Part shown: piece by piece, positions 34,427 to 47,801 of the stretch
Position numbering within the stretch: position 1 is the first letter of the stretch
Layout of the letters: every line of letters begins with the position of its first letter
DNA from: Candidatus Limnocylindrales bacterium
GTDB lineage: Bacteria > Chloroflexota > Limnocylindria > Limnocylindrales > CSP1-4
NCBI GenBank assembly: GCA_036559965.1
Contig: DATBSD010000136.1
Coordinates: forward strand, 1,640-65,639
Reading direction: 5' to 3'
DNA: 64,000 nt
The notes under the pieces: generated by a model
What the model saw: only the letters and a program-made list of their open reading frames with translations
Told to the model about the DNA's origin: nothing
Database searches by the model: none
Position numbers and translations under genes: made by a program

Positions 34427-35089
34427 GTGAAGATCTTCCTGGACACCGCCGATATCGAGGAGATCCGCATCGCCGCGCGCTGGGGCGTGCTCGACGGGGT
34501 GACCACGAACCCGACTCTCTACGGCAAGGTCGGTGGCAGCTACGAGGACATCCTCACGGAGATCTGCCGCATCACGCCCGGCCCTGTCAGCGCCGAGGTC
34601 GTGGCCGAGGACGTCGAGGACATGCTCAAGGAGGGTCGGGCGTTCGCGAAGCTGGCGCCCAACATCGTCGTCAAGGTGCCCATGAGCGAGACCGGGCTGG
34701 AGGCCATCGCGCGCTTTGCCGAAGAGGGCATCAAGACGAACTGCACGCTCATCTTCTCGGCCAACCAGGGCCTCCTCGCGGCCAAGGCCGGCGCGTCGCT
34801 GCTGTCGCCGTTCGTCGGTCGCCTCGACGACATCAACCAGGACGGCATGGAGGTCATCCGCGAGCTGGTCGGCATCGTCGAGCTGCACGGGCTCGACACG
34901 GAAGTCCTGGCCGCGTCGATCCGCCACCCGCGCCACATGACCGACGCTGCCCTGGCCGGCGCGCACGTGGCCACGCTGCCGTTCAAGGTGCTCAAGCAGA
35001 TGGTCCATCACCCACTCACCGACTCGGGCATCGTCCAGTTCCGGAAGGATTGGGAGCAGGCCCGCGAGGCCGCCGCCGCCAAGGCCTAG
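34427..35089 (+). CDS. short-form transaldolase / fructose-6-phosphate aldolase family
   Basis: GTG start 6 nt after AAGGAG; MKIFLDTADIEEI, TTNPTL, Schiff-base Lys in IVVKVP, 220 aa. Confidence 0.85.
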   Translation: MKIFLDTADIEEIRIAARWGVLDGVTTNPTLYGKVGGSYEDILTEICRITPGPVSAEVVAEDVEDMLKEGRAFAKLAPNIVVKVPMSETGLEAIARFAEEGIKTNCTLIFSANQGLLAAKAGASLLSPFVGRLDDINQDGMEVIRELVGIVELHGLDTEVLAASIRHPRHMTDAALAGAHVATLPFKVLKQMVHHPLTDSGIVQFRKDWEQAREAAAAKA

Positions 35090-35396: not shown

Positions 35397-36464
35397 TCAG
35401 CTCGGGCGTACGTCCGGATCGGGCAGCACGATGTCGCGCACCGCGCCGATGAGGTCGTGATATGACCGGATGAATGTGCGCAGGGTCCGGGCGGTCGCGC
35501 CGAAGCCCTGGAATTCGTCGATGGTCAGACCCATCGGGTCGTAGGCGCGCTCGAAGTCCGGGAGCCGCTCGAGCAGATCGTCGACGAGGCGCGGCTCCAC
35601 CGGCTCGTCGATGCGATCGACGGGTGTGATGCCGCTGGCATTGAAGCGCACCTGCCAGGCGTGCGGCAGGGTCAGGATGACGTCACCGCCGACGAGCTCC
35701 GTCCAGTGCAGACGATGCCGGTAGGCGGCGGCCAGCAGTCGGGCGCGGTAGCCGCGCTCCCGGAACACGGCGTAGGCGCGCTTGAAGACGGCGATGCCGG
35801 CCCAGTCGAGCGCATCCGGCTGGACGACGATGCCGTCGCGTTCGACGAGCACGCGCAGCCAGTCGTCGACGCGGCCCATCATGATCGTGCAGACCGGCGA
35901 CACGGAGCCGGCGTCGCCGCCGCCGGCCACCAGTGCATCCAGGCCGCGCTCGACGGCCTCCGCCACCGCGATCGCCTGGGCGACCGTGAAGCAGACCGTG
36001 GCGTTGATGCTGATGCCCGCCGCGGTCGCCGCTTCGATGGCCGCGATGCCGGCCGCGGTGGCCGGGAACTTGACCTGCATGTTGGGCGCCAGCGCCGCGA
36101 ACCGTCGGCCCTGCTCGAGCATCAGCTCCGCGTTGCCATGGTTGGCCGGGTTCGTCTGGATCGATAGGCGGCCCTTGCGGCCGCCCTCGCGGACGAAGAC
36201 CGGCTCCAGGATGCCCGCGCCGCGGGCGGCCATGGCCTCGATGAGCGCCCAGGTCAGGTCGGTCTCGGTGGCCGAGGGCTCGACCATCGCGCGCTCCGCG
36301 ACCCACGGCTGCCAATGCGCCCGTTCCTTGCCCAGGACCTCGAGCACGATGCTCGGGTTGGACGTGGCGCCGGTGGCACCTCGGGCGACGGCGTACTCGA
36401 GCTCGGCGATCGCGCACGAGTCGTTCCAGTAGTCGGTCGGTCGGTCGCTGACCGTCCGCGACAT
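35397..36464 (-). CDS. tal: transaldolase (long form)
   Basis: Start MSRTVSDRPTDYWNDS; TSNPSI, Schiff-base Lys in NMQVKFPAT, ~355 aa. Confidence 0.85.
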   Translation of the reverse strand: MSRTVSDRPTDYWNDSCAIAELEYAVARGATGATSNPSIVLEVLGKERAHWQPWVAERAMVEPSATETDLTWALIEAMAARGAGILEPVFVREGGRKGRLSIQTNPANHGNAELMLEQGRRFAALAPNMQVKFPATAAGIAAIEAATAAGISINATVCFTVAQAIAVAEAVERGLDALVAGGGDAGSVSPVCTIMMGRVDDWLRVLVERDGIVVQPDALDWAGIAVFKRAYAVFRERGYRARLLAAAYRHRLHWTELVGGDVILTLPHAWQVRFNASGITPVDRIDEPVEPRLVDDLLERLPDFERAYDPMGLTIDEFQGFGATARTLRTFIRSYHDLIGAVRDIVLPDPDVRPS

Positions 36465-36542
36465 GGGACAGTCGACGAGGGCCGCTGAGGCCAGGCCGGT
36501 CATCCGTCACTCCTGTGTGGTCGGTATCCTAGTCGACGATCG

Positions 36543-38291
36543 ATGACAGACGAGATCCTGGGCCAGTTCCTGGGCGACGACGCCTTCCCGGTGACCTGGG
36601 ATTCGGACGTCGAGCGGGACTTCTTCTGGGTCTACGACGACCTCCACATCCCGCACCCGGTCAGCCCCATGTTCTTCGACATCGGCGGCTGGTGGCTGAG
36701 CTGCGATCACATGTTCCGTCGCTTCGGGACGCCGTTCGCCGTCGACTGGCTGGCAAAGGCCGTCAACGGCTATGTCTACACGACCGCCATCCCGGCCGAC
36801 CCCGACCTGCACATAGAGGGCACCGAGTACAGCGCCCGCTACCAGGCTCGTGTGCCGCGCGACGCCGCCTTCGCCTCGACCATGGGCGCCTACCTCGACA
36901 CCGTCCTCCCAACGTATGGCAAGCACTTCGCCGACTGGTGGCGCGACCGCCTGGTGCCAGAGATGCAGCGCAACTTCGCGTACCTCGAGGCGCGCCTCGA
37001 CGAGGTCGAGCGCATGGACCTGGCGGAGACGGCTGTCCTGCTCGAGGACGCCATCGACATCCACGATCGGCACTGGAAGATCCACTGGATGCTCAACTTC
37101 GCGCAGCTCTCGGCCACGCTCGACCTGCGGGCGGTCATGGAACGGGCGCGCGGCAGCGTCGACGAGGGGCTCCTGGGACGGCTCCAGAACTCGGCTTCGG
37201 ACCGCAACTGGGACTCCATCGAGGCGCTCTGGCGGATGAAGAACGAGGTCCGCGACGACGACCAGCTGCGGGCTGCCTTCGCGCCCGAGGACACGGCCGA
37301 GATCCTGGCCGCCCTCGTGGCGGGCGAGCGCGGCCGCCGGTTCCTGGCCGAGCGCGTCGAGCCCTACCAGCGCGAGTTCGGCTGGCACGCCGTCTGGAGC
37401 CACGAGTTCATCTTCCCGACCGTGCGTGAGCAGGTGGAGCCGGTGCTCGAGCTCGTGCGCGGCTACCTCGCCACCGATTACGACTACCCGACGGCCATCG
37501 AGGCCATGCGGAAGGACATCGAGGCTGCCTCGCAGGAGATCCTCGGCGGCCTCTCGGGCGCCGACCTCGACGCCATGCGAGCGGCCAACGAGGTCAACCT
37601 GCGCATGGCGCCGCTGACGCCCGACCACCACTTCTACATCGACCAGGGCGCCAACGCCCACCTCCGCCTGGTGCTCCTGACGGTCGGCCAGAAGCTCGTC
37701 GAGCTCGACCGTCTCGACGAGCCGGACGACGTCCTGTTCCTGCGCTACAACGAGCTGCGCGCCCTCATCGGCAGCGCCGACGCCATCGATGCGCGCGGGC
37801 TCGTCGCCGTTCGGCGGACCGAGCGCGACGCCCAGCAGCGCCTCCAGCCGCCCGATTGGATCGGCACCGCGACCGCCGCGCAGCTGGCCTTCCCGTATCT
37901 CGTCAACTGGGGCTACCCGGAGCGCTTCCACCAGATCCAGTCGGAGGACCTGCGGCTGATCACCGGCATCGGCGCCTCGCCCGGGGTCCTGGAAGGCACC
38001 GCCCGGGTGGTCCAGACCATCGACGAGTTCGACCAGGTCCGCGACGGCGACATCCTCGTCTGCCAGATGACGAACCCGGCCTGGGTCGTGCTGTTCACGA
38101 AGATCGCCGCCCTCGTGACCGACACCGGTGGGCTGACTTCGCACCCGGCCGTGCTCTCGCGCGAGTTCGGCATCCCGGCCGTCATCGGCACGTCCGTTGC
38201 GACGCAGCGCATCGCGACCGGCGACCGGCTGCGGGTCGACGGGAGAGCCGGCAAGGTCGAGATCCTGCGCGAGGCGGCGTCGGGCGCGTGA
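36543..38291 (+). CDS. PEP-utilizing-enzyme family protein: novel ~450-aa N-terminal domain plus C-terminal phospho-His swivel (mobile) domain; first gene of six-gene operon
   Basis: C-terminus GDILVCQMTNPAWVVLFTKIAALVTDTGGLTSHPAVLSREFGIPAVIG matches the PEP-utilizers mobile domain of PpsA/PPDK/EI (catalytic His ~534, preceding Thr-Ser as in regulated dikinases); the N-terminal region has no ATP-grasp or TIM-barrel motifs I recognise. Confidence 0.8.
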   Translation: MTDEILGQFLGDDAFPVTWDSDVERDFFWVYDDLHIPHPVSPMFFDIGGWWLSCDHMFRRFGTPFAVDWLAKAVNGYVYTTAIPADPDLHIEGTEYSARYQARVPRDAAFASTMGAYLDTVLPTYGKHFADWWRDRLVPEMQRNFAYLEARLDEVERMDLAETAVLLEDAIDIHDRHWKIHWMLNFAQLSATLDLRAVMERARGSVDEGLLGRLQNSASDRNWDSIEALWRMKNEVRDDDQLRAAFAPEDTAEILAALVAGERGRRFLAERVEPYQREFGWHAVWSHEFIFPTVREQVEPVLELVRGYLATDYDYPTAIEAMRKDIEAASQEILGGLSGADLDAMRAANEVNLRMAPLTPDHHFYIDQGANAHLRLVLLTVGQKLVELDRLDEPDDVLFLRYNELRALIGSADAIDARGLVAVRRTERDAQQRLQPPDWIGTATAAQLAFPYLVNWGYPERFHQIQSEDLRLITGIGASPGVLEGTARVVQTIDEFDQVRDGDILVCQMTNPAWVVLFTKIAALVTDTGGLTSHPAVLSREFGIPAVIGTSVATQRIATGDRLRVDGRAGKVEILREAASGA

Positions 38292-39184
38292 CGAGCGTGG
38301 TGCTGAGCGAGGAGTTCGTGGCAGGGCCCGCCCGGCTGCGGGTCGACGTCCTCGGCGGCCCGCCCATCGAGCACGTCCTCGATGACAAGAGCTTCCTCGA
38401 CTACCGCCTGGCGGACGTGCACATCGACCCGGCGCCCACGCTCGCCGAGCCCGATATCGTCTGGGATCGCGAGGCCGGACGGAGAGCCATCGACTACGAC
38501 GACCGACGGATGACGTTCTCGGGCGACTGGCCGGCGGGTCCCATCCAGAAGGTCGTCGTGGCCATGCTCGCGCTGCGGCTCGAGAACCTCGGGCTGCATC
38601 CCTTCCATGCGTCGGCCGTGCGCTACCGCGACAGGACGATCCTCTTCCTGGGCGGCGAGTCGAACCACGGCAAGTCGATGGGCCAGATCGAGGCCTGCCG
38701 GCGCGGGGCGATGCTGGTCTCGACGGAGACGACGATCATCGACGAGTCGGGCATCGTCAGGGCGGGGTCGAAGTCGCCGTTCCTGAAGAAGCGCACCGAG
38801 GGCACCGAGCGGGCTGACAAGGCGGCGCCCGAACGCGGCGTCGAGAAGTTCTTCGGCGACATGCCGACCTGGGCGCTGTACACGGAGCCGAGCGTCGTCG
38901 ACCTCGTCGTGGTGCCCGCGATCGACGGCAACTTCGACCCCTCGAGCGCCGAGATGATCCCCTTCGAGCGCCAGTTCCAGACGCTCCACTCGCTCCAGAA
39001 CTACTTCCTGCTCAACGAGCTGCTGGCGCCCGGCATCCCCATGCCCATCGTCGACACGACCGAGCGCCGGGCGGCGCGGGCGGCCTTCGTCGCGAGCTTC
39101 GCTGAGCGGCCGTACGTCTTCGTGCGGGCCGCCAACCCGCAGGTGCTGCTCGACGAGGTCGATGCCGTGCTCCGGCCGGCCTGA
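38288..39184 (+). CDS. HprK-like P-loop kinase-domain protein
   Basis: GTGA overlap with the upstream stop; HASAVRYRDRTILFLGGESNHGKSMGQIEACRRGAMLVSTETTII matches the HPr-kinase C-terminal domain pattern (H..V....G.L..G.SG.GKS..AL.L...G..L..DD); 298 aa. Confidence 0.6.
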   Translation: MTSVVLSEEFVAGPARLRVDVLGGPPIEHVLDDKSFLDYRLADVHIDPAPTLAEPDIVWDREAGRRAIDYDDRRMTFSGDWPAGPIQKVVVAMLALRLENLGLHPFHASAVRYRDRTILFLGGESNHGKSMGQIEACRRGAMLVSTETTIIDESGIVRAGSKSPFLKKRTEGTERADKAAPERGVEKFFGDMPTWALYTEPSVVDLVVVPAIDGNFDPSSAEMIPFERQFQTLHSLQNYFLLNELLAPGIPMPIVDTTERRAARAAFVASFAERPYVFVRAANPQVLLDEVDAVLRPA

Positions 39185-40053
39185 TGCGCGCGTTCGCCTA
39201 CGAGCGACCGACCGACCTCGACGCCGCCATCGCGACGCTGGCCCGGCATGGCGACGACGCGCGGCCACTTGCCGGCGGGACCGACCTCATCATCCGTCTG
39301 CGCGATGGGACCATCCGGCCGCGACTGGTCGTCGACCTCAAGGGCATCGCCGAGCTCGACGACGCCATCGCCGAGCACGACGGTGGTCTGCGCATCGGAG
39401 CACGGACCATCATGACCGACATCGCCGCAGATCCGCGCATCAGGCGCGACTACCAGGCGCTGGCCGAGGGGGCGGCGGTCGTTGGCGCGGTCCAGATCCG
39501 CAACCGGGCGACGCTGGCCGGCAACATCTGCAACGCCTCGCCGGCCGCCGACACGGCGCCGGCGCTGCTCGTCTTCGGTGCCGTCGTCGTCGCCGTCGGG
39601 CCGGCGGGCGAGCGGCGCATCCCCATCGACGCCTTCTTCGTGCGTTCCGGCGTCACGACGCTGGGCCCAGAGGAGCTGGTCACGGCCATCGAGCTGCCGC
39701 GGTCCGCTGCCCCAAGAGGCTCGACCCACGTCCGGCGGACCCGCCGCCGTGGCCACGACCTCGCCTCGGTCACCTTGAGCTGCACCGTGTCGGCCGATGG
39801 CACCGTGACCATCGGCTACGGCAGCCTCGGACCGCGGCCCATCCTCGTGACCGACGACTCGGGTGTGCTGGTCGATCCGGCGGCCCCCGAACGGGCGAAG
39901 CTGGAATGCCTCGACGCGCTCTTCGTCGACGCCAGCCCGTCGCCCCGGTCGCTCCGAGCGAGCCCGGACTACCGGCTGGCGATGCTCCGTGTCCTTGCCC
40001 TGCGCGCGATCGCGAAGGCCGCAGAGCGCCTGAACCACGCCGACGGCGCATGA
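39184..40053 (+). CDS. xanthine-dehydrogenase-family FAD-binding subunit (CoxM-like)
   Basis: ATGA overlap; MRAFAYERP...LAGGTDLIIRLRDG, NRATLAGNICNASPAADTAP FAD-binding blocks. Confidence 0.85.
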   Translation: MRAFAYERPTDLDAAIATLARHGDDARPLAGGTDLIIRLRDGTIRPRLVVDLKGIAELDDAIAEHDGGLRIGARTIMTDIAADPRIRRDYQALAEGAAVVGAVQIRNRATLAGNICNASPAADTAPALLVFGAVVVAVGPAGERRIPIDAFFVRSGVTTLGPEELVTAIELPRSAAPRGSTHVRRTRRRGHDLASVTLSCTVSADGTVTIGYGSLGPRPILVTDDSGVLVDPAAPERAKLECLDALFVDASPSPRSLRASPDYRLAMLRVLALRAIAKAAERLNHADGA

Positions 40054-40541
40054 CGCCGCGACCCATCGCGCTGACCGTCAACGGGCAGGCTCGCGCGCTG
40101 ACCGTCGCCGCCCATCACACGCTGCTGGAGGTCCTGCGCGACGACCTAGCGCTGACCGGCTCGAAGGCCTGCTGCCTGGTCGGCGAGTGTGGGGCGTGCA
40201 CCGTGCTCGTCGATGGTCGGAGCGTCGACGCCTGCCTCGTCCTCGCGGTCGAGATCGACGGGGCGGTAGTCACGACCGTCGAGGGCCTCGCGACCGACGG
40301 ACGCCTCGATCCGCTCCAGGCCGCGTTCCTCGAGACCGGTGCGGCGCAGTGCGGGTTCTGCATCCCCGGCCAGCTCGTCTCCGCGCGGGCGCTCCTGGCC
40401 GCCAACGCGCATCCGACTCGCCACGAGGTCGAGGACGGCCTGGCCGGCAACCTCTGCCGCTGCGCGGGCTACGGCCAGATCGTCGAGGCCGTGCTGGTGG
40501 CCGCCGGCGAACGTGGCGCGGCCCCTGGGGCCGGCGGATGA
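40050..40541 (+). CDS. xanthine-dehydrogenase-family [2Fe-2S] subunit (CoxS-like)
   Basis: ATGA overlap; LTVNGQ, CCLVGECGACTVLVDG and QCGFCIPGQ...NLCRCAGY cysteine clusters. Confidence 0.9.
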   Translation: MTPRPIALTVNGQARALTVAAHHTLLEVLRDDLALTGSKACCLVGECGACTVLVDGRSVDACLVLAVEIDGAVVTTVEGLATDGRLDPLQAAFLETGAAQCGFCIPGQLVSARALLAANAHPTRHEVEDGLAGNLCRCAGYGQIVEAVLVAAGERGAAPGAGG

Positions 40542-42847
40542 CCGCCGCCGACGGCATCGGCGCCTCACCGGCCAGGGTCGGCGGCCTCGATCGGGTGACC
40601 GGTCGCCAGGCCTACGTCGCCGACATCCACCTCGAGGGCGTCCTCGAGGTCAAGCTCGTCGCCCTCGACTGCGCTCGAGCACGCATCGTGGGCATCGACG
40701 CCAGCGCCGCGCTGACTGTCCCGGGTGTTCGCTTCGTCATGACCGCCGACGATCTGCCGCAGCCGATGCCGCGCTTCGGGCCGCAGTGGCAGGACCGACC
40801 GGTGCTCGCCGTCGGCGAGACGCGCTACCACGGCGAGCCGGTCGCCGCGGTCGCCGCCGCGACGCTCGATGCCGCTGAGGAAGCCGCCGCGCTCGTGCGC
40901 GTCGACTATGAGGAGCTGCCGGCCGTCACGACCATCGCCGCTGCGCTCGAATCGGGCGCCTCCCTCGTCCAGGACCCCGCCCTCCGAGCCGGCGACCCGC
41001 TGGCGGCGACGAACATCCTGCGCGAGCACGACTACGGCTGGGGCGACGTGGACGCCGTGGGTGCGGACGCCGAGGTGGTGGTCGAGGGCACGTACGCGTT
41101 CCCGATCGTGACCCAGTTCGCCATCGAGCCGCACGGCTTCATGGCCGCGCCGGACGGGGATGGCATCGCCATCTGGAGCTCGATCCAGCATCCCAATTGG
41201 CTCCAGCGCGTGGTGGCCGGCGTGCTCGGGCTGCCGCTCGCCAAGGTGCGCGTCTTCGCGCCCGACCCGGGGGGAGGCTTCGGCGGCAAGCAGCACGCCA
41301 AGTACGAGCCGCTCGTCGCCTTCATGGCTCTCAAAGCAGGCCGGCCTGTGCGGCTCGTGCTGACGCTCGAGGAGACGTTCCAGGCGGTCCGTCGGGGCGC
41401 ATCGGAGATCCGCGTCCGTTCCGGCTTCCGCACCGACGGTGCCCTCGTCTTCCGCGACATCGAAGCCGACTACCTCATCGGCGCCTACGCCGACATCGCC
41501 GACCGGACGGTGGCCAAGGGCAGCTACACCGCCAACGGCCCCTACCTCACGCCGGCCGTCCGAATCCACGCCCGGAGCATCCTCTCGAACACGACGCCTT
41601 CGACGGCATTCCGGGGCTTCGGCAATCCCCAGCAGATCTGGGCCGTCGAGTCGAACATGAACGAGGCGGCTGGCGTGCTTGGCATCGACCCGCTCGCGCT
41701 GCGGCTGCGCAACCTGGCCGGCCACGGTGATCCATTCATCCCCGGCGACACGCCGGCCGACGGCGCGTGGGCGACCACCGTCGAGCGGGCCGCCGAGCTC
41801 ATCGGCTGGAACGGCCCGCCAGGGCCGGGGGCCAGCGAGGGCCCCGTCGTGGCTGAGAAGCTGGCGGTCGGGCGCGGGCTGGCGGTCGGGCTGAAGTCCG
41901 GCCCCACCACCGGCCTCTCCTATGCCACCGTCCGCATGCTGGCCGACAGCAGCGTCATCATCCATGCCGCCACGTCCGACATGGGCCAGGGTGCGCGAAC
42001 GATCTTCGCCCAGATCGCGAGCCAGGAGTTGGGCGTGCCGCTCGACTGGATCTCGGTCGTCATGGGCGACACGGCGACCGTGCCCTACGACCAGCAGACG
42101 TCGGCCAGCCGCTCGTCCGTGCTCATGGGCAATGCCGTCCTGGACGCCTGCCGGGCAGTGCAGGCGAAGGTGCGCGACATGGCAGCGCGCCTGGAGTCGG
42201 TCGACGCAGCGGCCGTCGAGGTGGCCGACGGCGAGGTCCGCATCGGCGAGCGCACGTGGCCGCTGCGTAACGTCCTCATCCGCGGCCTCGGCCGGCTGGG
42301 TGGCGAGGTCATCGGCCTTGGCGAGATGCGCAAGGAGGCCGACCCCGACCACCCGCTCGGCGGGACCGCCGCGTTCTTCGAGTTCAACTGCACGGCTGTC
42401 GAGGTCGCCGTGGACCGCGAGACGGGCGACGTGTCCGTGCTGCGCCACGTCAGCGTCTCCGACGTCGGCCGGGCGATGAATCCCAGCCAGGTCCGTGGCC
42501 AGGACGAGGGCGCCGCGATCATGGGCCTCGGGCACACGCTCATGGAGCAGATCATCTACGACGACGCCGGCCGGATCCGCAACCTGGGCGCCATCGACTA
42601 CCACATCCCCACCAGCCTCGACCTGCCGACGGAGATGGAGACCGCGATCATCGAGCACGAGGACGGGCCGGGTCCCTACGGCTCGAAGGGTATGAGCGAG
42701 GGCGCGCTGCTGTGCGTCGCCCCGGCCGTGGCCGCCGCGGTCCACGATGCGGTCGGCGTCACGATCCGGGACCTGCCACTCTCGCCGGAGCGGGTCTGGC
42801 GGGCGCTCCAGGAGGCCTCGCCGAGCGAGCCGCCCGGCGCGTCGTGA
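40538..42847 (+). CDS. xanthine-dehydrogenase-family molybdopterin-binding large subunit (CoxL-like Mo-hydroxylase)
   Basis: ATGA overlap; PDPGGGFGGKQ MoCo motif, STAFRGFGNPQ active-site region, 769 aa. Confidence 0.9.
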   Translation: MTAADGIGASPARVGGLDRVTGRQAYVADIHLEGVLEVKLVALDCARARIVGIDASAALTVPGVRFVMTADDLPQPMPRFGPQWQDRPVLAVGETRYHGEPVAAVAAATLDAAEEAAALVRVDYEELPAVTTIAAALESGASLVQDPALRAGDPLAATNILREHDYGWGDVDAVGADAEVVVEGTYAFPIVTQFAIEPHGFMAAPDGDGIAIWSSIQHPNWLQRVVAGVLGLPLAKVRVFAPDPGGGFGGKQHAKYEPLVAFMALKAGRPVRLVLTLEETFQAVRRGASEIRVRSGFRTDGALVFRDIEADYLIGAYADIADRTVAKGSYTANGPYLTPAVRIHARSILSNTTPSTAFRGFGNPQQIWAVESNMNEAAGVLGIDPLALRLRNLAGHGDPFIPGDTPADGAWATTVERAAELIGWNGPPGPGASEGPVVAEKLAVGRGLAVGLKSGPTTGLSYATVRMLADSSVIIHAATSDMGQGARTIFAQIASQELGVPLDWISVVMGDTATVPYDQQTSASRSSVLMGNAVLDACRAVQAKVRDMAARLESVDAAAVEVADGEVRIGERTWPLRNVLIRGLGRLGGEVIGLGEMRKEADPDHPLGGTAAFFEFNCTAVEVAVDRETGDVSVLRHVSVSDVGRAMNPSQVRGQDEGAAIMGLGHTLMEQIIYDDAGRIRNLGAIDYHIPTSLDLPTEMETAIIEHEDGPGPYGSKGMSEGALLCVAPAVAAAVHDAVGVTIRDLPLSPERVWRALQEASPSEPPGAS

Positions 42848-44991
42848 CCCACGCCTACGCCCTGGATGCCCTGCCGGCGATGGCGTCTGGCGATCTGCGT
42901 GCGCTCGTGGGTGGCAAAGCCGCCGGCCTCGCCGTCATGTCGACCGAGCTCGGGTTGCCAGTGCCGCCCGGCTTCGTCATCACGACCGACGTCTGCCGCC
43001 TGTTCCTGGCCGATGGCTGGCCGGCTGGCCTCGACGACGAGATCCGGGCTCGGATGGCGGCTGTCGAGGCGACCGTCGGGCGCCGGTTCGGCGATCCCGG
43101 GGACCCGCTTCTCGTCAGCGTCCGGTCCGGCGCGCCGGTCTCGATGCCCGGCATGATGGACACCATCCTCAATCTCGGCCTCAACGATGGGACGACGACG
43201 GGTCTCGCCCGCGCGAGCGGCGACACCACGTTCGCCGAACGCTGTCGCGAGCGCCTCACGTCGAGCTTCCGCGCGATCGTCGGCATCGAAGCCCCGGACG
43301 ACCCCTGGCAGCAGCTGCGGCTGGCGGTCGAGGCGGTCTTCGGCTCGTGGCAGAGCGATCGGGCGGTGGCGTATCGGGCGAAGGAGAACATCCCGGACGG
43401 CCTGGGCACCGCGGTCACGGTGCAGGCCATGGTCTTCGGGAATCGCGGCACGACCTCCGCGACCGGCGTCCTCTTCACGCGCGACCCGGCAACCGGCGAG
43501 CCGACCCTCTACGGCGACATCCTCTTCGACGCCCAGGGCGAGGACGTCGTCGCCGGCACGCACGCGACCGAGCCCATCGCGGTCCTCGACGAGCGGCTTC
43601 CCGCGGTCGCCGCCGAACTTCGGGACCATGCCGCGCGGTTGGAGCACCACCTCGAGGACATGTGCGACATCGAGTTCACCATCGAGGATGGGCGGCTGTG
43701 GATGCTCCAGTGCCGCGTCGGCAAGCGCAGCCCGCAGGCCGCCTTGCGCATCGCTCTCGACATGGCCGAGGACTCGACGTTCCCGCTCACGCGAGCCGAG
43801 GCCGTCGAGCGCGTCGCCGCGCTGCTCGCGAACCCGCCGACGACGACGAGGGAGCGCGGCGGCGCCCTGAAGCCGCTCACGACGGGCATGCCGGCCTCGC
43901 CAGGCATCGCCAGCGGCCCCATCGCGACCAGTCCCGAAGCCGCGCTCCTGGCGGCCGACGAGGGGAGGGCAGCCATCCTCGTCCGCGCGGACACGTCCCC
44001 GGACGACGTGCCCGGCATGGCCCGCGCCGCCGGCATCCTGACATCGCGCGGCGGTCTCGCCAGCCACGCCGCGGTCGTTGCTCGAGGCTGGGGGATCCCG
44101 GCCGTCGTCGGCGCGGCCGAGGTGGCGGTGCACCACGACACGGTCGTCGTGGGCGATCGGACGTTCCAGTCGGGCGAGATCATCACCATCGACGGCAGCA
44201 CCGGTGACGTCTTCGAAGGCGCCATCCCGGTCAGTCGGGACGTCGTGCCGGAGGCCAGCCCGCTGCTTGACTGGGCGACGGAGCTCGGGATCCCGATCCC
44301 CCAGGGCGCACCCGACATCGCGCGGATAGCGCCCGATGTCCAAGCCTTCGCCGACGCCGGCGCTTCCGACCGGGCTGCCAGCCCGGACGCCTGTCTTCGA
44401 GCCGTCGCCGTCAAGGGGTTCGCTTCGGTGCAGGCGATCGCCGACGCCGTCCTCTCGACGCCAGACGTCGTCCAGCCGGCAGTCGACCGACTCTTGAACG
44501 ATGGGCTGCTGGCGATCGTCGCCGACGCCTTCCGACTGACGGACGCCGGCACGGCCCGCGCGGAGGCCTTGCGCGCCGAGGACCAGGCGGCCTGGGGCCT
44601 CGAACGTGCCAACGCTGCGCTCGATGCCTTCCTCGGCCTCGACCACCGGATGAAGGACACGGTCACGGCCTGGCAGGTCCGCGACGCCGCCGCGCAGAAG
44701 CTCAACGACCACGCCGACCCGGACTACGACCGACGGGTGCTGGCCTCGCTGGCGGACCTCCATGCCGACGCGGTCGCCTGGCTGGCGCCGCACGAGGTCG
44801 GCTGTGCGCGGTTGGGCGACTACGGCGTGCGGCTCGGGCGCGCGCTCGAGCGGGCGCTGGCGGGCGATCAGCGCTTCGTCGCCTCACCTCGCGTCGACAG
44901 CTACCACGGCATCTGGTTCGAGCTCCACGAGGACCTCATCGGGCTGGCCGGTCGCACCCGCGCGGACGAGGTCGCCGCCGGTCGCGCCTGA
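42844..44991 (+). CDS. pyruvate-phosphate-dikinase-like protein: PPDK N-terminal ATP-grasp nucleotide-binding domain plus phospho-His central domain, lacking the PEP/pyruvate TIM barrel, with a ~230-aa C-terminal extension
   Basis: GTGA overlap with coxL stop; near-identical PPDK blocks DPLLVSVRSGAPVSMPGMMDTILNLGLND, TAVTVQAMVFGN, GEDVVAGTHATEPI, DIEFTIEDGRLWMLQCRVGKRS, and His domain ILVRADTSPDDVPGMARAAGILTSRGGLASHAAVVARGWGIPAVVG; no RTEH/NDLTQ TIM-barrel motifs follow. Confidence 0.85.
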   Translation: MTHAYALDALPAMASGDLRALVGGKAAGLAVMSTELGLPVPPGFVITTDVCRLFLADGWPAGLDDEIRARMAAVEATVGRRFGDPGDPLLVSVRSGAPVSMPGMMDTILNLGLNDGTTTGLARASGDTTFAERCRERLTSSFRAIVGIEAPDDPWQQLRLAVEAVFGSWQSDRAVAYRAKENIPDGLGTAVTVQAMVFGNRGTTSATGVLFTRDPATGEPTLYGDILFDAQGEDVVAGTHATEPIAVLDERLPAVAAELRDHAARLEHHLEDMCDIEFTIEDGRLWMLQCRVGKRSPQAALRIALDMAEDSTFPLTRAEAVERVAALLANPPTTTRERGGALKPLTTGMPASPGIASGPIATSPEAALLAADEGRAAILVRADTSPDDVPGMARAAGILTSRGGLASHAAVVARGWGIPAVVGAAEVAVHHDTVVVGDRTFQSGEIITIDGSTGDVFEGAIPVSRDVVPEASPLLDWATELGIPIPQGAPDIARIAPDVQAFADAGASDRAASPDACLRAVAVKGFASVQAIADAVLSTPDVVQPAVDRLLNDGLLAIVADAFRLTDAGTARAEALRAEDQAAWGLERANAALDAFLGLDHRMKDTVTAWQVRDAAAQKLNDHADPDYDRRVLASLADLHADAVAWLAPHEVGCARLGDYGVRLGRALERALAGDQRFVASPRVDSYHGIWFELHEDLIGLAGRTRADEVAAGRA

Positions 44992-45181: not shown

Positions 45182-45598
45182 GTGAAGACCACCACCGTCG
45201 AAGCCGCGGAGCACGGCCGCTCGCCACTGGGAGCACATATCCGCTTCCTGATGGATGGGCCCCACGGCAACATGATCCACTCGACCGTGCCGCCGGGGAT
45301 GGTTGGTCGCGCCTGCCACTTCCGGACGATCGACGAGTACTGGTATGTCCTCTCGGGTGAGGGAGAGATCTGGCGCCGGGCGCTCGACGGCCGTGAGAGC
45401 ACCACCCGGCTGGTCCCTGGCGTGTGCATCGATATCCCGCTCGGCACGGCCTTTCAGTACCGCTGCACCGGGAGCGCGGCCCTTGTCTTCACCTGCACAG
45501 GCCTACCATCGTGGCCGGGCGACGACGAGGCCGTGATCGTGGACGGGCCGTGGGTGCCCTGTGTGGACCCGGAGCCCGGGGGCCAGCGCTCGGATTAG
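45182..45598 (+). CDS. cupin-domain protein
   Basis: GTG start; 138 aa; two-motif cupin pattern (HxH...E ... P.G..H) around HSTVPPGMVGRACHFRTIDEYWYVLSGEGEI and LVPGVCIDIPLGTAFQYR. Confidence 0.55.
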   Translation: MKTTTVEAAEHGRSPLGAHIRFLMDGPHGNMIHSTVPPGMVGRACHFRTIDEYWYVLSGEGEIWRRALDGRESTTRLVPGVCIDIPLGTAFQYRCTGSAALVFTCTGLPSWPGDDEAVIVDGPWVPCVDPEPGGQRSD

Positions 45599-46046: not shown

Positions 46047-46137
46047 CCCCCAGCTTCCGCGCACCGGGCCGCCCGGTCGAGTGCGACCGGACGATCTACG
46101 ATCGACGCCCCACCCGACCACCGAGGAGGCGCCGCCG

Positions 46138-47385
46138 ATGTACACGGCCACCAAGGACCTCATGCTCCCGGCGACCGTCACCGGCTCGTGGCCGCGGCCG
46201 CGCTGGTACGACGGCGGCCTGTGGGGCCGGCCGCTCGACACGGCGCTTCTCGACGTCCGCTTTCGCGAGCAGTTCCTCGATGCACACGCCACCGTCATCG
46301 CCGACCAGCAGCGCGCCGGGCTCGACATCCTGACCAACGGCGACTACCACCTCGACGAGGACTTCGCCGGACGCTCGTGGCACCACTACCCGCTCCAGCG
46401 CTGGAAGGGCCTCGAGCACGAGGAGCTGCAGTACGAGCGCTCGCGCGACCGACTGCTCGAGTTCCCGCCAGGGTCACTGATGAACGAGATCGAGACGACG
46501 TGGCGCTGGCCGCGCGTCGTCGGCAAGGTCGAGCACGACCCCCGCAACCCGCTCGAGTACGCCAAGCTCTGGCGCATCGCCCAGGCGCGCTCTGGCTCCG
46601 GCAAGCCGGTCAAGTTCGGGACCTGCTCGTCGCAGGTGCTCTCGATCTTCCTCGACAGTCACACGCCCGAGTACGACCTCGAGGACAAGAAGCAGCTCAT
46701 CTGGGACATGGCCGGCGCGATGAACGTCGAGCTCCGCCAGCTGGCGGCCGCCGGTGCCAAGGTCATCCAGATCGAGGAGCCGACCATCCACTTCGTGGCG
46801 GCCTTCTATCCCGACCAGAAGGAGCTGCTCGACTTCCTCGTCGACGCCTTCAACCACGAGGTCGAGGGCCTCGACGACGTCGAGCTCTGGATCCACACCT
46901 GCTGGGGCAACCCGAACATGCAGAAGGTCTACACCGGCGAGTCGTATGAGCCCTCCATCGACATCTATCTCAACCGGCTCAAGGGCGACGTCTGGACCGT
47001 CGAGGCGACCGAGAACGAGCTGGCCGAGATCGAGCTCTTCAAGCCCTATGCCAGCCGGCTTCAGAAGAAGGTCGCCGTCGGTGTCGTCAACCACCGCACC
47101 CTGCAGGCCGACATGGCGCCGACCGTGGCCAGGCGCGTCAGGCGCGCGCTGGAGGTCATCCCGGCCGACAAGCTCATCCTCTCGACCGACTGTGGCTTCG
47201 GCCGGCAGGGCTTCAATCGGACCGTCGCCTTCTACAAGACGACGGCCATCGCCCAGGCGCGTAACGTGGTCCTCAAAGAGCTCGGGCTCGAGGAGCGCTA
47301 CGTCCCGGCGGCCGACCCATCGCTCCAGACCGACGTGCTCCCGGACCGCGAGCCCCTGACCCACCTGCCGTCACCGTGGACGTAG
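46138..47385 (+). CDS. cobalamin-independent methionine synthase (MetE) C-terminal-domain-like / UROD-superfamily methyltransferase
   Basis: ATG after GAGGAGG; ~415 aa; zinc-ligand-like HTCWGN and STDCGFG motifs as in MetE catalytic domain; single domain only (full MetE has two). Confidence 0.7.
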   Translation: MYTATKDLMLPATVTGSWPRPRWYDGGLWGRPLDTALLDVRFREQFLDAHATVIADQQRAGLDILTNGDYHLDEDFAGRSWHHYPLQRWKGLEHEELQYERSRDRLLEFPPGSLMNEIETTWRWPRVVGKVEHDPRNPLEYAKLWRIAQARSGSGKPVKFGTCSSQVLSIFLDSHTPEYDLEDKKQLIWDMAGAMNVELRQLAAAGAKVIQIEEPTIHFVAAFYPDQKELLDFLVDAFNHEVEGLDDVELWIHTCWGNPNMQKVYTGESYEPSIDIYLNRLKGDVWTVEATENELAEIELFKPYASRLQKKVAVGVVNHRTLQADMAPTVARRVRRALEVIPADKLILSTDCGFGRQGFNRTVAFYKTTAIAQARNVVLKELGLEERYVPAADPSLQTDVLPDREPLTHLPSPWT

Positions 47386-47420
47386 CGGCCAGTCGGGACG
47401 AGTCGAGCCAGGGGAGCGCC

Positions 47421-47801
47421 GTGGACCACGACGACCTGGTGCGGATGCTCAAGGCCATCGCGACGGCCTTCGACGAGCATGATCTCGACGCGATCATGAC
47501 CCACTTCGCCGAGGACGCCGTCTTCGATGCGCCCCGCGGACCGGACCCTTGGGGCACGCGATTCGCCGGCCTGGCGGAGATCCGGCAGGGCTTTGCCGGG
47601 CGCTTCGCGGGCATCCCCGACATCCGCTACCGGCAGGACGAGCACTTCGTCGACGGTGACCGCGGCGCATCCGAATGGACGCTGTCCGGCACCACGACCG
47701 ACGGTCAGCGCATCGAGGTCAGGGGCTGTGATCTGTGGACCTTCCGGGACGGTAAGGTCCTCAAGAAAGACTCCTTCTGGAAGATCGTCACCCCCGGCTA
47801 A
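47421..47801 (+). CDS. SnoaL/NTF2-like domain protein
   Basis: GTG start; LKAIATAFDEHDLDAIMTHFAEDAVFD...WTFRDGKV pattern typical of SnoaL-like polyketide-cyclase-fold proteins. Confidence 0.55.
   Translation: MDHDDLVRMLKAIATAFDEHDLDAIMTHFAEDAVFDAPRGPDPWGTRFAGLAEIRQGFAGRFAGIPDIRYRQDEHFVDGDRGASEWTLSGTTTDGQRIEVRGCDLWTFRDGKVLKKDSFWKIVTPG

Follow-up and report, generated by a model that had tools for sequence, protein, structure and literature searches.

A PEPCK/HprK-fold protein conserved beside genes for a small-molecule dikinase and a molybdenum or tungsten oxidoreductase: an enzymatic role in the pathway is likelier than PDRP-style regulation

Phosphorylation-initiated catabolism, as of phenol, cresol, hydroxyphenylethanones and 3-hydroxypyridine, is a recently recognised theme. 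The dikinases PpsAB (phenol), CreHI (4-cresol) and HpeHI (hydroxyphenylethanones) and the single-chain RPH combine substrate-binding and swivel phospho-His domains. In the two-component systems, the ATP-grasp domain is located on a separate protein, and relatives pair a protein with Rph_4th and PEP-utilizers domains with a PPDK_N-only partner. Small phenolics serve as phosphate acceptors for two-component dikinases, and HpeH by itself can shuttle phosphate between substrates (PMC12167813). In Ensifer adhaerens HP1, genetics demonstrated that HpdA needs a dikinase pair for the hydroxylation of 3-hydroxypyridine; only hpdA1-4 and the dikinase pair are required, and no component like gene 2 of the present locus is reported as such (10.1101/2020.01.08.898148). 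A further point of comparison is the PDRP/PSRP group (DUF299, PF03618), bifunctional enzymes (ADP-dependent kinase, Pi-dependent phosphorylase) that regulate PPDK and PEP synthase; like gene 2, they are P-loop proteins beside a PEP-utiliser-domain protein with a Thr-x-His motif.

Here, we describe a related module in a 64-kb window, i.e. the whole stretch of Limnocylindrales DNA that was analysed (64,000 nucleotides). Its genes 1 to 6 (36543-44991) overlap, every junction sharing 1-4 nt, and form a single translationally coupled operon next to a divergent transaldolase-family gene:

35397..36503, minus strand: transaldolase-family gene (368 aa; PF00923), divergent from gene 1
36543..38291, plus strand: gene 1 (582 aa), substrate-binding and swivel phospho-His component, PpsA/CreH/HpeH/RPH-like
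38288..39184, plus strand: gene 2 (298 aa; GTG start), P-loop protein with PEPCK/HprK fold
39184..40053, plus strand: gene 3, FAD-binding subunit of a xanthine-dehydrogenase-family molybdenum enzyme (PF00941, PF03450)
40050..40541, plus strand: gene 4, [2Fe-2S] subunit (PF01799, PF00111)
40538..42847, plus strand: gene 5, molybdopterin-binding large subunit (PF01315, PF02738, PF20256)
42844..44991, plus strand: gene 6, truncated PPDK-like protein with an ATP-grasp domain (PPDK_N) and its own swivel His domain (PF00391)
44374-44988, plus strand: C-terminal winged-helix and four-helix-bundle domain of gene 6

The order of the six genes is retained in essentially all of 80 loci, these being the best 80 related loci and all of Limnocylindria type. 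The operon encodes a two-component small-molecule dikinase of the RPH/PpsAB type and a three-subunit molybdenum hydroxylase, with predicted activity. Gene 1 provides the substrate-binding domain and the swivel His534, and gene 6 provides the ATP-grasp domain, its PPDK_N being the sole such domain detected within the window. Genes 3 to 5 carry the FAD, 2x[2Fe-2S] and MoCo subunit domains expected of a xanthine-dehydrogenase-family hydroxylase. The nearest solved relative of gene 5 is the alpha subunit of 4-hydroxybenzoyl-CoA reductase (1rm6_A, E 1.3e-93), and no NCBIfam equivalog cut-off was attained by gene 5. The transaldolase-family gene travels with the module: 58 loci have it adjoining gene 1, and its counterpart at a Gaiellaceae locus (L088) shares 56% identity with it. 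Long reverse-strand or alternative-frame ORFs (e.g. 37913-39268, minus strand) were discarded as artefacts of the 71% GC content; the GC3 bias typical of real genes was seen in the listed genes only.

As in RPH/PpsAB-type dikinases, the swivel PEP-utiliser domain with H534 lies near the C-terminus of gene 1. The PF00391 mobile domain spans aa 500-570 (E 2.8e-24) and contains T532-S533-H534, Listeria RPH (5fbs) matches aa 375-575 (E 2e-26), and the NCBIfam models PRK08296, RedH, PigC and Rph align with aa 22-578, all under their cut-offs. According to precomputed Pfam annotation, homologues of gene 1 carry Rph_4th and PEP-utilizers domains. The module nevertheless differs from the described two-component dikinases. 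Gene 1 is only ~25-28% identical to PEP-utilizing enzymes encoded on plasmids of Rhodococcus, Rhizobium and Azoarcus (relatives of Hpe/Pps type), and its residue two positions before the catalytic His (His-2) is Thr and not Met. The Limnocylindria gene 6 is PPDK-like, with its own swivel His and a winged-helix and four-helix-bundle tail (structure predicted with database homologues as input sequences), and the dikinase is linked to a molybdenum hydroxylase and to gene 2. By description, the module is likened to Ensifer HpdA1-4 with orf9/orf10, a molybdenum hydroxylase clustered with and dependent on PPDK-like and PEP-utilising mobile-domain proteins; the likeness extends to a GntR regulator and an ABC transporter nearby, whereas the window operon has no separate SRPBCC subunit.

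Gene 2 is an unannotated protein with a PEP-carboxykinase/HprK fold. Its GTG start at 38288 shares bases with the stop codon of gene 1 (GTGA). There was no match in Pfam at E up to 10 or in NCBIfam at E up to 1, phmmer against the PDB returned no matches, a 92-aa core fragment retrieved only a spurious ribosomal match from the PDB, and literature searches found no paper on the family. The following elements were identified within gene 2:

38549-38551, plus strand: catalytic-type K88
38606-38608, plus strand: catalytic-type H107
38654..38680, plus strand: Walker A motif G123-E-S-N-H-G128-K129-S130-M131
38726-38728, plus strand: catalytic-type E147

Across 92 related loci, the Walker A motif is invariant as G-E-x-N-[HR]-G-K-[ST], as are W81, G84, H107, K129, S130, E147 and E174-R175-D177, while position 88 is K or R. 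Further invariant arginines are R139, R169, R175, R261, R264 and R280. The description of gene 2 as an HprK-fold P-loop protein, made in an earlier note on this DNA, is thus borne out by the fold matches and the strictly conserved P-loop and catalytic residues, and orthologues retain the P-loop throughout the 92 loci.

Although gene 2 folds like the P-loop kinase domain at the C-terminus of HprK/P, its fold and profile matches are nearer to PEPCK, a small-molecule enzyme. Foldseek ranked ATP-PEPCK at the top (E 5e-8), with HprK/P at 5e-5 to 1e-3, and the gene 2 family profile matched Thermus PEPCK (E 0.006) and, weakly, HprK (E 0.11) in the PDB. Alignment of the family with E. coli PckA by hhalign (75% probability, E 2.5e-5) pairs W81/G84/K88/H107/K129/S130/E147 with W206/G209/K213/H232/K254/T255/D269. 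The nucleotide-binding core with kinase-1a (GxxGxGKT) is therefore shared, with equivalents in gene 2 for the metal ligands K213, H232 and D269 and the P-loop residues K254 and T255 of PckA. However, at 298 aa gene 2 has about half the length of PckA (~530-540 aa), with a TM-score of only ~0.47 and an identity of ~13%. Of the residues of the oxaloacetate/CO2 site, Y207 and K212 pair with P82 and Q87, and R65 and R333 are not alignable, although gene 2 has invariant arginines elsewhere. Gene 2 also scores far under the cut-off of TIGR00224 (pckA), the best model match being E 0.1 for one relative. Compared with HprK/P, gene 2 has a different N-terminal domain, no match to PF07475 or TIGR00679, and a PEPCK-type WxxGxxxK element that HprK/P does not have. 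No HPr-like gene occurs in its operon or in related loci, and the context is catabolic instead of PTS-related. The GKS-x17-acid helix-strand spacing after the P-loop looks more HprK-like than PEPCK-like.

The gene 2 family consists of small P-loop proteins (~295 aa) from Limnocylindria, Gaiellaceae, Nitrososphaerales and Thermococcus. It is carried by 425 genomes. On every contig of sufficient length, in-family homologues (at least 36% identity) adjoin genes for PEP-utiliser or ATP-grasp dikinase proteins, none having been found without such neighbours. The family is confined to this catabolic module across its whole range, which takes in Chloroflexota, Actinomycetota, Nitrososphaerales and Thermococcus. 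Besides the Limnocylindria operon, four architectures were found. The Nitrososphaerales locus has SCP2, gene 2 and PPDK_N beside a Rph_4th/PEP-utiliser protein and molybdenum hydroxylase genes. The Gaiellaceae locus reads gene 1, GntR, cyclase, PPDK_N and gene 2, with transaldolase and molybdenum hydroxylase genes alongside, and a subsurface MAG (L090) reads HMGL, gene 1, gene 2 and cupin. In Thermococcus, gene 2 is coupled to genes for an HMGL-like lyase and a cupin, with PPDK_N, a cyclase, two AFOR genes, UPF0261 and gene 1 nearby; the dikinase genes lie 3-9 kb off and tungsten AFOR enzymes stand in place of the molybdenum enzyme. In four of the five architectures, gene 2 and a gene for a dikinase subunit are immediate neighbours, often with stop/start overlap.

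No gene 2 homologue was present in 72,556 plasmids. The Thermomicrobium roseum megaplasmid carries the module with no detectable gene 2; a 205-aa hypothetical protein at the corresponding position was rejected as a homologue (0.2% hhalign probability, weak DUF4202 similarity). No Rosetta-stone fusion of gene 2 to a swivel domain was found, as no longer protein containing gene 2 has a PEP-utiliser domain. The longer proteins with gene 2 segments carry FCD (GntR) or molybdenum hydroxylase subunit domains, i.e. those of neighbouring genes, and are probably read-through gene calls across the 1-4 nt overlaps. Two outliers (P0268 and P0270) match FomB phosphonate-monophosphate kinase and HprK-related kinase models (E ~1e-5). 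FomB, the HprK-related kinases A and B and ScmC, the remote sequence neighbours of these outliers, are HprK-like and have small molecules or peptides as substrates, but their models are unmatched by gene 2 and its in-family relatives, and their genomic contexts are unrelated.

Taken together, an enzymatic role in the pathway is likelier for gene 2 than one as a PDRP-style regulator. Our preferred reading, which we hold tentatively and at somewhat less than even confidence, is that gene 2 is a putative, catalytically active phosphotransferase of the PEPCK/HprK fold whose substrate is a small-molecule pathway intermediate, with no PDRP-like switch on Thr532. Most plausibly, gene 2 would process the phosphate ester installed by the dikinase and either pass its phosphoryl group on to ADP or Pi or attach a second one. 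By analogy, it may fill the phosphate-handling slot that a HAD-family hydrolase takes in the Hpe-type cluster of a Rhizobium plasmid; the operon itself has no phosphatase gene. As the pathway substrate, a hydroxylated (hetero)aromatic or an enolisable compound is probable. The FomB and HprK-related kinase matches of the distant relatives provide a precedent for small-molecule substrates, and the coupling of Thermococcus gene 2 to pathway enzymes, not to the dikinase, also supports this reading. Against it counts that the fold is common to HprK/P, a bona fide protein kinase/phosphorylase, as does the HprK-like look of the spacing after the P-loop, and the position beside a dikinase subunit gene in most architectures fits a dikinase subunit or regulator as well. 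Gene 2 seems dispensable for the basic chemistry, since it is undetected in T. roseum and unneeded in Ensifer. That gene 2 would be a mini PEPCK-like enzyme, transferring the phosphoryl group of a dikinase-made aryl or enol phosphate to ADP, or to Pi giving PPi, possibly with (de)carboxylation, we regard as quite unlikely.

Among the alternatives, an HprK-type kinase/phosphorylase survives best that would control the dikinase, or a different module protein, through a residue distinct from His-2; we consider it unlikely, but ahead of the mini PEPCK-like enzyme. The target could be a surface Ser/Thr in either the swivel domain or the ATP-grasp domain; alternatively, a small carrier protein could be modified. 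Such a role agrees with the gene order, since gene 2 has gene 1 or the PPDK_N gene as its neighbour both in the window and at loci L081, L086, L088 and L090, and with the matches of distant relatives to HprK-related kinase A/B models from peptide-modifying contexts. An accessory function would also fit T. roseum, whose megaplasmid has no detected gene 2, and Ensifer, where gene 2 is dispensable (10.1101/2020.01.08.898148). On the other hand, no conserved candidate target residue was found, the operon encodes no HPr-like protein, gene 2 keeps the metal triad and the WxxGxxxK element specific to PEPCK, and in Thermococcus gene 2 accompanies HMGL and cupin at a distance from the dikinase genes.

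Less probable than either is that gene 2 serves as a nucleotide-binding third dikinase subunit, functionally like PpsC of phenylphosphate synthase and with no substrate of its own; its part would be to promote or coordinate the passage of phosphate between the ATP-grasp component and the swivel component. PpsC is a CBS-domain protein unrelated to gene 2, which counts against this model. The invariant H107, E147, K/R88 and E174-R175-D177 likewise exceed the needs of simple nucleotide binding, and the Thermococcus gene is not adjacent to those of the dikinase. In its favour, gene 2 is translationally coupled to gene 1 or PPDK_N in several lineages, and its conservation (75-82%) equals that of gene 1. 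Bridging is conceivable, as HpeH/HpeI complexes are only transient (PMC12167813).

The earlier note had proposed that gene 2, as a PDRP/PSRP-like bifunctional kinase/phosphorylase, reversibly phosphorylates Thr532 and so gates the phospho-relay. Direct reading of the sequence confirms the motif VTDTGGL-T532-S533-H534-PAV in gene 1:

38136-38144, plus strand: T532-S533-H534 codons (starts 38136/38139/38142), catalytic His and proposed regulatory Thr

It also confirms Ala at the equivalent position of gene 6 (GGLASH, 44050-44067). The resulting Thr/Ala asymmetry is real within Limnocylindria but not general, the PPDK_N-only ATP-grasp partners of other lineages having no His domain. The proposal gains from the HprK-type fold and intact P-loop of gene 2, from the overlap of its start with the stop of the swivel-domain gene, and from the Thr in ~80% of the Limnocylindria orthologues of gene 1 and the Ser in Thermococcus (GGLSSH), where the characterised relatives RPH, HpeH, CreH and PpsA have Met (PMC12167813). 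However, a Thr two residues before His generically marks PEP synthase, PPDK and Enzyme I (PMC12167813) and is therefore, by itself, no sign of regulation. Moreover, the residue is not conserved among the gene 1 partners of gene 2 homologues: across 83 loci it is T in ~68, V in 10, A in 2 and L in 3 (the Nitrososphaerales copies), i.e. non-Thr in 15. The Gaiellaceae (GGVVSH), Nitrososphaerales (GGLLSH) and subsurface MAG (GGVLAH) partners each have a gene 2 homologue alongside, and the last of these has no hydroxyl residue from His-1 to His-3; T. roseum, with no detected gene 2, has GGQLSH. The switch model therefore fails its own test. Similarity to PDRP/PSRP does not extend beyond the P-loop either: hhalign with E. 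coli PpsR covers 20 P-loop columns (probability 0.5%), there is no Pfam match, and the PDRP structure 5d0n, although in the searched library, is absent from the top structural neighbours. The coupling of Thermococcus gene 2 to the lyase and cupin genes instead of the dikinase genes also argues against a switch on Thr532, which we judge very improbable. A role as molybdenum-cofactor maturation factor was dismissed, there being no XdhC/CoxF-type similarity and the family persisting where tungsten AFOR replaces the molybdenum enzyme.

For annotation, the locus calls for caution: a Thr-x-His motif beside a P-loop gene is insufficient to assign a PDRP-type switch. A cultured representative of the gene 2 family exists in Thermococcus sibiricus (WP_015849898.1), which makes experiments feasible. 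If gene 2 is a protein kinase, it would represent an independent invention of dikinase regulation; if it recycles the phosphoryl group, it would add a new activity to an old fold superfamily. Should the mini PEPCK-like reading be true, this new PEPCK/HprK activity would render phosphate-assisted Mo/W-dependent hydroxylation nearly energy-neutral, account for the need of the hydroxylase for a dikinase, and define a catabolic route common to soil Chloroflexota, Actinomycetota and hyperthermophilic archaea. To phosphorylation-initiated catabolism, the locus adds a third partner that is conserved across domains, an unannotated putative phosphotransferase of the PEPCK/HprK fold.

The module studied here comprises six genes (g1-g6) at window positions 36543-44991, in a window with a GC content of 70-72%.

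Genes of the operon (window coordinates)
36543-38291: gene 1 (g1), 582 aa, swivel phospho-His protein with the PF00391 mobile domain at its C-terminal end
38288-39184: gene 2 (g2), 298 aa, P-loop protein with a GTG start at 38288 overlapping the TGA of gene 1
39184-40053: g3, FAD subunit, xanthine-dehydrogenase family
40050-40541: g4, 2Fe-2S subunit, xanthine-dehydrogenase family
40538-42847: g5, MoCo subunit, xanthine-dehydrogenase family
42844-44991: gene 6 (g6), PPDK-like, with its own swivel His (GGLASH at 44050)

As neighbours overlap by 1-4 nt throughout, g1-g6 are a single operon with translational coupling. Most of the length of gene 1 is covered by matches to the PRK08296, RedH, PigC and rifampin-phosphotransferase models; the protein can also be aligned with Listeria RPH, and its homologues contain Rph_4th and PEP-utilizers. 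Its motif is VTDTGGL-T532-S533-H534-PAV, in which T532, S533 and H534 are encoded by 38136-38144. The sole ATP-grasp domain within the window is that of gene 6, assigned as PPDK-like by an above-cut-off match to PRK05878. By its sequence, gene 1 belongs with PpsA, CreH and HpeH (PMC12167813): it is predicted to be the substrate-binding and swivel part of a small-molecule dikinase made of two components. The nearest solved relative of the g3-g5 enzyme is 4-hydroxybenzoyl-CoA reductase (alpha subunit against the Mo subunit at 40538-42847, E 1.3e-93), and this Mo subunit reaches none of the NCBIfam equivalog cut-offs. 4-Hydroxybenzoyl-CoA reductase belongs to the anaerobic phenol pathway, in which the PpsAB dikinase is also used.

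Divergent from gene 1, as is usual in related loci, lies a 368-aa transaldolase-family gene (35397-36503, minus strand). It scores well below every NCBIfam transaldolase cut-off and is kept with the module in 58 loci, the Gaiellaceae copy being 56% identical; a second, canonical TAL/FSA gene of 220 aa is located at 34427-35089. Downstream of the operon, cupin, MetE-like (Meth_synt_2) and SnoaL-like proteins are encoded (45182-45598, 46135-47385 and 47376-47801). This cupin shows no synteny in most related loci; in the Thermococcus and subsurface-MAG versions a cupin follows g2.

No match to gene 2 was found in Pfam (up to E 10), NCBIfam or the PDB sequences. An identical gene 2 protein is on record for a 'Candidatus Limnocylindrales' (Chloroflexota) MAG. 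Its family counts 171 representatives at 50% identity among 1.84 billion proteins, many of them fragments, and 425 matching stretches encoding a relative were detected in the GTDB species genomes, of which the best 80 were taken as loci. A confident AlphaFold model (15-sequence alignment, pLDDT 87.9, pTM 0.87) retrieved ATP-PEPCK first (Foldseek E 5e-8, TM ~0.47) and HprK/P second (E 5e-5 to 1e-3), and the family profile matched Thermus PEPCK (E 0.006) and HprK (E 0.11). With hhalign, residues 73-155 were aligned to 197-277 of E. coli PckA (75% probability, E 2.5e-5), pairing W81/G84/K88/H107/K129/S130/E147 with PckA W206/G209/K213/H232/K254/T255/D269, which are the P-loop and, according to established PEPCK structural work, the Mn ligands. 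The P-loop reads G123-E-S-N-H-G-K129-S130. Across 92 gene 2 loci, H107, G123, E124, N126, G128, K129, E135, R139, E147, R169, E174, R175, D177, R261, R264 and R280 are invariant and position 88 is K or R. Outlying relatives (~25-30% identity) match the NCBIfam models for HprK-related kinase A/B, HPr(Ser) kinase and FomB (E ~1e-5). Gene 2 thus represents a distinct branch of the PEPCK/HprK superfamily, new and unannotated, with PEPCK-like features, and its residues suggest that it is catalytically competent. Fold, profile and catalytic residues bear out, at the superfamily level, its earlier description as an HprK-fold P-loop protein.

The order g1-g2-g3-g4-g5-g6 is held in 80 Limnocylindria-type loci wherever the contig allows. 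In most of these operons a GntR/FCD regulator gene separates g1 from g2 (e.g. L001, 9246-9971); in the window g1 and g2 overlap directly with no such gene between them, which means loss or relocation of the regulator there. A few near-identical operons assigned to Methylomirabilota, Acidimicrobiales or Actinomycetota MAGs (L004, L012, L077) are probably mis-binned Limnocylindria contigs, or else reflect recent transfer. More distant homologues (36-55% identity) occur in Gaiellaceae, Nitrososphaerales, Thermococcus (T. sibiricus and others), WOR-3, Thermotogota and subsurface MAGs.

Gene 2 contexts in distant lineages (domain labels)
Gaiellaceae: g1, GntR, cyclase, PPDK_N, g2, then TAL and Mo-hydroxylase genes
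Nitrososphaerales: SCP2, g2, PPDK_N, with g1 and two Mo-hydroxylase sets alongside
Subsurface MAG: HMGL, g1, g2, cupin
Thermococcus: PPDK_N, ThiS-like, cyclase, AFOR, Fer4, AFOR, DUF169, HMGL, g2, cupin, Ldh (opposite strand), UPF0261, g1

Gene 2 is strictly embedded in a catabolic module of dikinase and Mo/W oxidoreductase in both bacteria and archaea. In Thermococcus (L094/L095, 1052-15698), two tungsten-type AFOR genes and a 4Fe-4S protein stand in place of the Mo hydroxylase, as if Mo and W oxidoreductases had been exchanged within a single pathway.

The megaplasmid of Thermomicrobium roseum, a cultured member of the Thermomicrobiota (NC_011961.1, 47285-72952), carries a g1 homologue (49% identical), PPDK_N and Mo subunits, together with cyclase, GntR, FAH, ABM, UPF0261 and a PEP-hydrolase-like gene; a search of the plasmid collection detected no gene 2. 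On the megaplasmid a weakly DUF4202-like 205-aa gene follows PPDK_N, a position taken by g2 in the Gaiellaceae locus. In Ensifer adhaerens HP1, the 3-hydroxypyridine dehydrogenase HpdA is a Mo hydroxylase that genetically requires PPDK-like and PEP-utilising mobile-domain proteins, and comparable clusters have been reported from a wide range of Actinobacteria and Proteobacteria, Gaiella among them (10.1101/2020.01.08.898148).

We tentatively propose that gene 2 would act as an active phosphotransferase on a small-molecule pathway intermediate. This reading is favoured by PEPCK-like elements that HprK lacks, by superfamily precedents acting on small molecules (PEPCK, FomB), and by Thermococcus, where the coupling partners of g2 are a lyase and a cupin, pathway enzymes, and not the dikinase. 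It is also favoured by the HAD-family hydrolase that adjoins the dikinase in the Hpe-type cluster, while the window operon contains no phosphatase gene. The Cre and phenol pathways too have dedicated dephosphorylating components. Since gene 2 often adjoins dikinase genes, and since the module exists without it on the T. roseum megaplasmid and does not need it in Ensifer, it could instead be a protein-directed HprK-like regulator acting at a site other than Thr532, which we consider less likely given the same PEPCK-like elements, or a PpsC-like accessory subunit of the dikinase, which is less probable still and fits the Thermococcus arrangement poorly.

The earlier note had described the gene 1, gene 6 and gene 2 sequences correctly and had suggested that gene 2 could phosphorylate Thr532, two residues before the catalytic His534 (His-2), to gate the relay in PDRP/PSRP style. 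Of the three refuters that the note set out, two were not seen: the P-loop is intact in all 92 loci, and no in-family homologue was seen without PEP-utiliser neighbours, which are lacking only for an outlier at 27% identity. The third was seen, as the phospho-acceptor itself is not kept: of 83 loci, ~68 have T at His-2, 10 have V, 3 have L and 2 have A, the T, A and V codons being single-nucleotide neighbours. Partners of gene 2 read GGVVSH in Gaiellaceae, GGLLSH in Nitrososphaerales, GGLSSH in Thermococcus and GGVLAH in a subsurface MAG, the last devoid of Ser/Thr from His-1 to His-3; T. roseum, where gene 2 was not detected, has GGQLSH. These residues look more like the outcome of drift where substitution is tolerated than of phospho-acceptor selection. 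The contrast of Thr in g1 with Ala in g6 is genuine and constant within Limnocylindria and does not extend to other lineages, where the ATP-grasp partner lacks a swivel domain altogether. Published work points both ways: Thr-x-His is a generic PEP synthase/PPDK/Enzyme I signature, yet RPH, HpeH, CreH and PpsA have Met at His-2, and the authors inferred no such regulation (PMC12167813). Nor is gene 2 PDRP-like by alignment or fold ranking: E. coli PSRP aligned with the family profile over 20 P-loop columns only (probability 0.5%), and the maize PDRP structure, present in the library searched, was not among the top fold matches. A switch on Thr532 is absent in any conserved form, and gating of the relay through this residue is very improbable.

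The observation in the earlier note is confirmed and its interpretation partly supported. The association of the gene 2 family with the dikinase and Mo/W module is striking and conserved. Present in cultured Thermococcus strains, the family offers a concrete way into the question of why some Mo/W hydroxylases require a dikinase.
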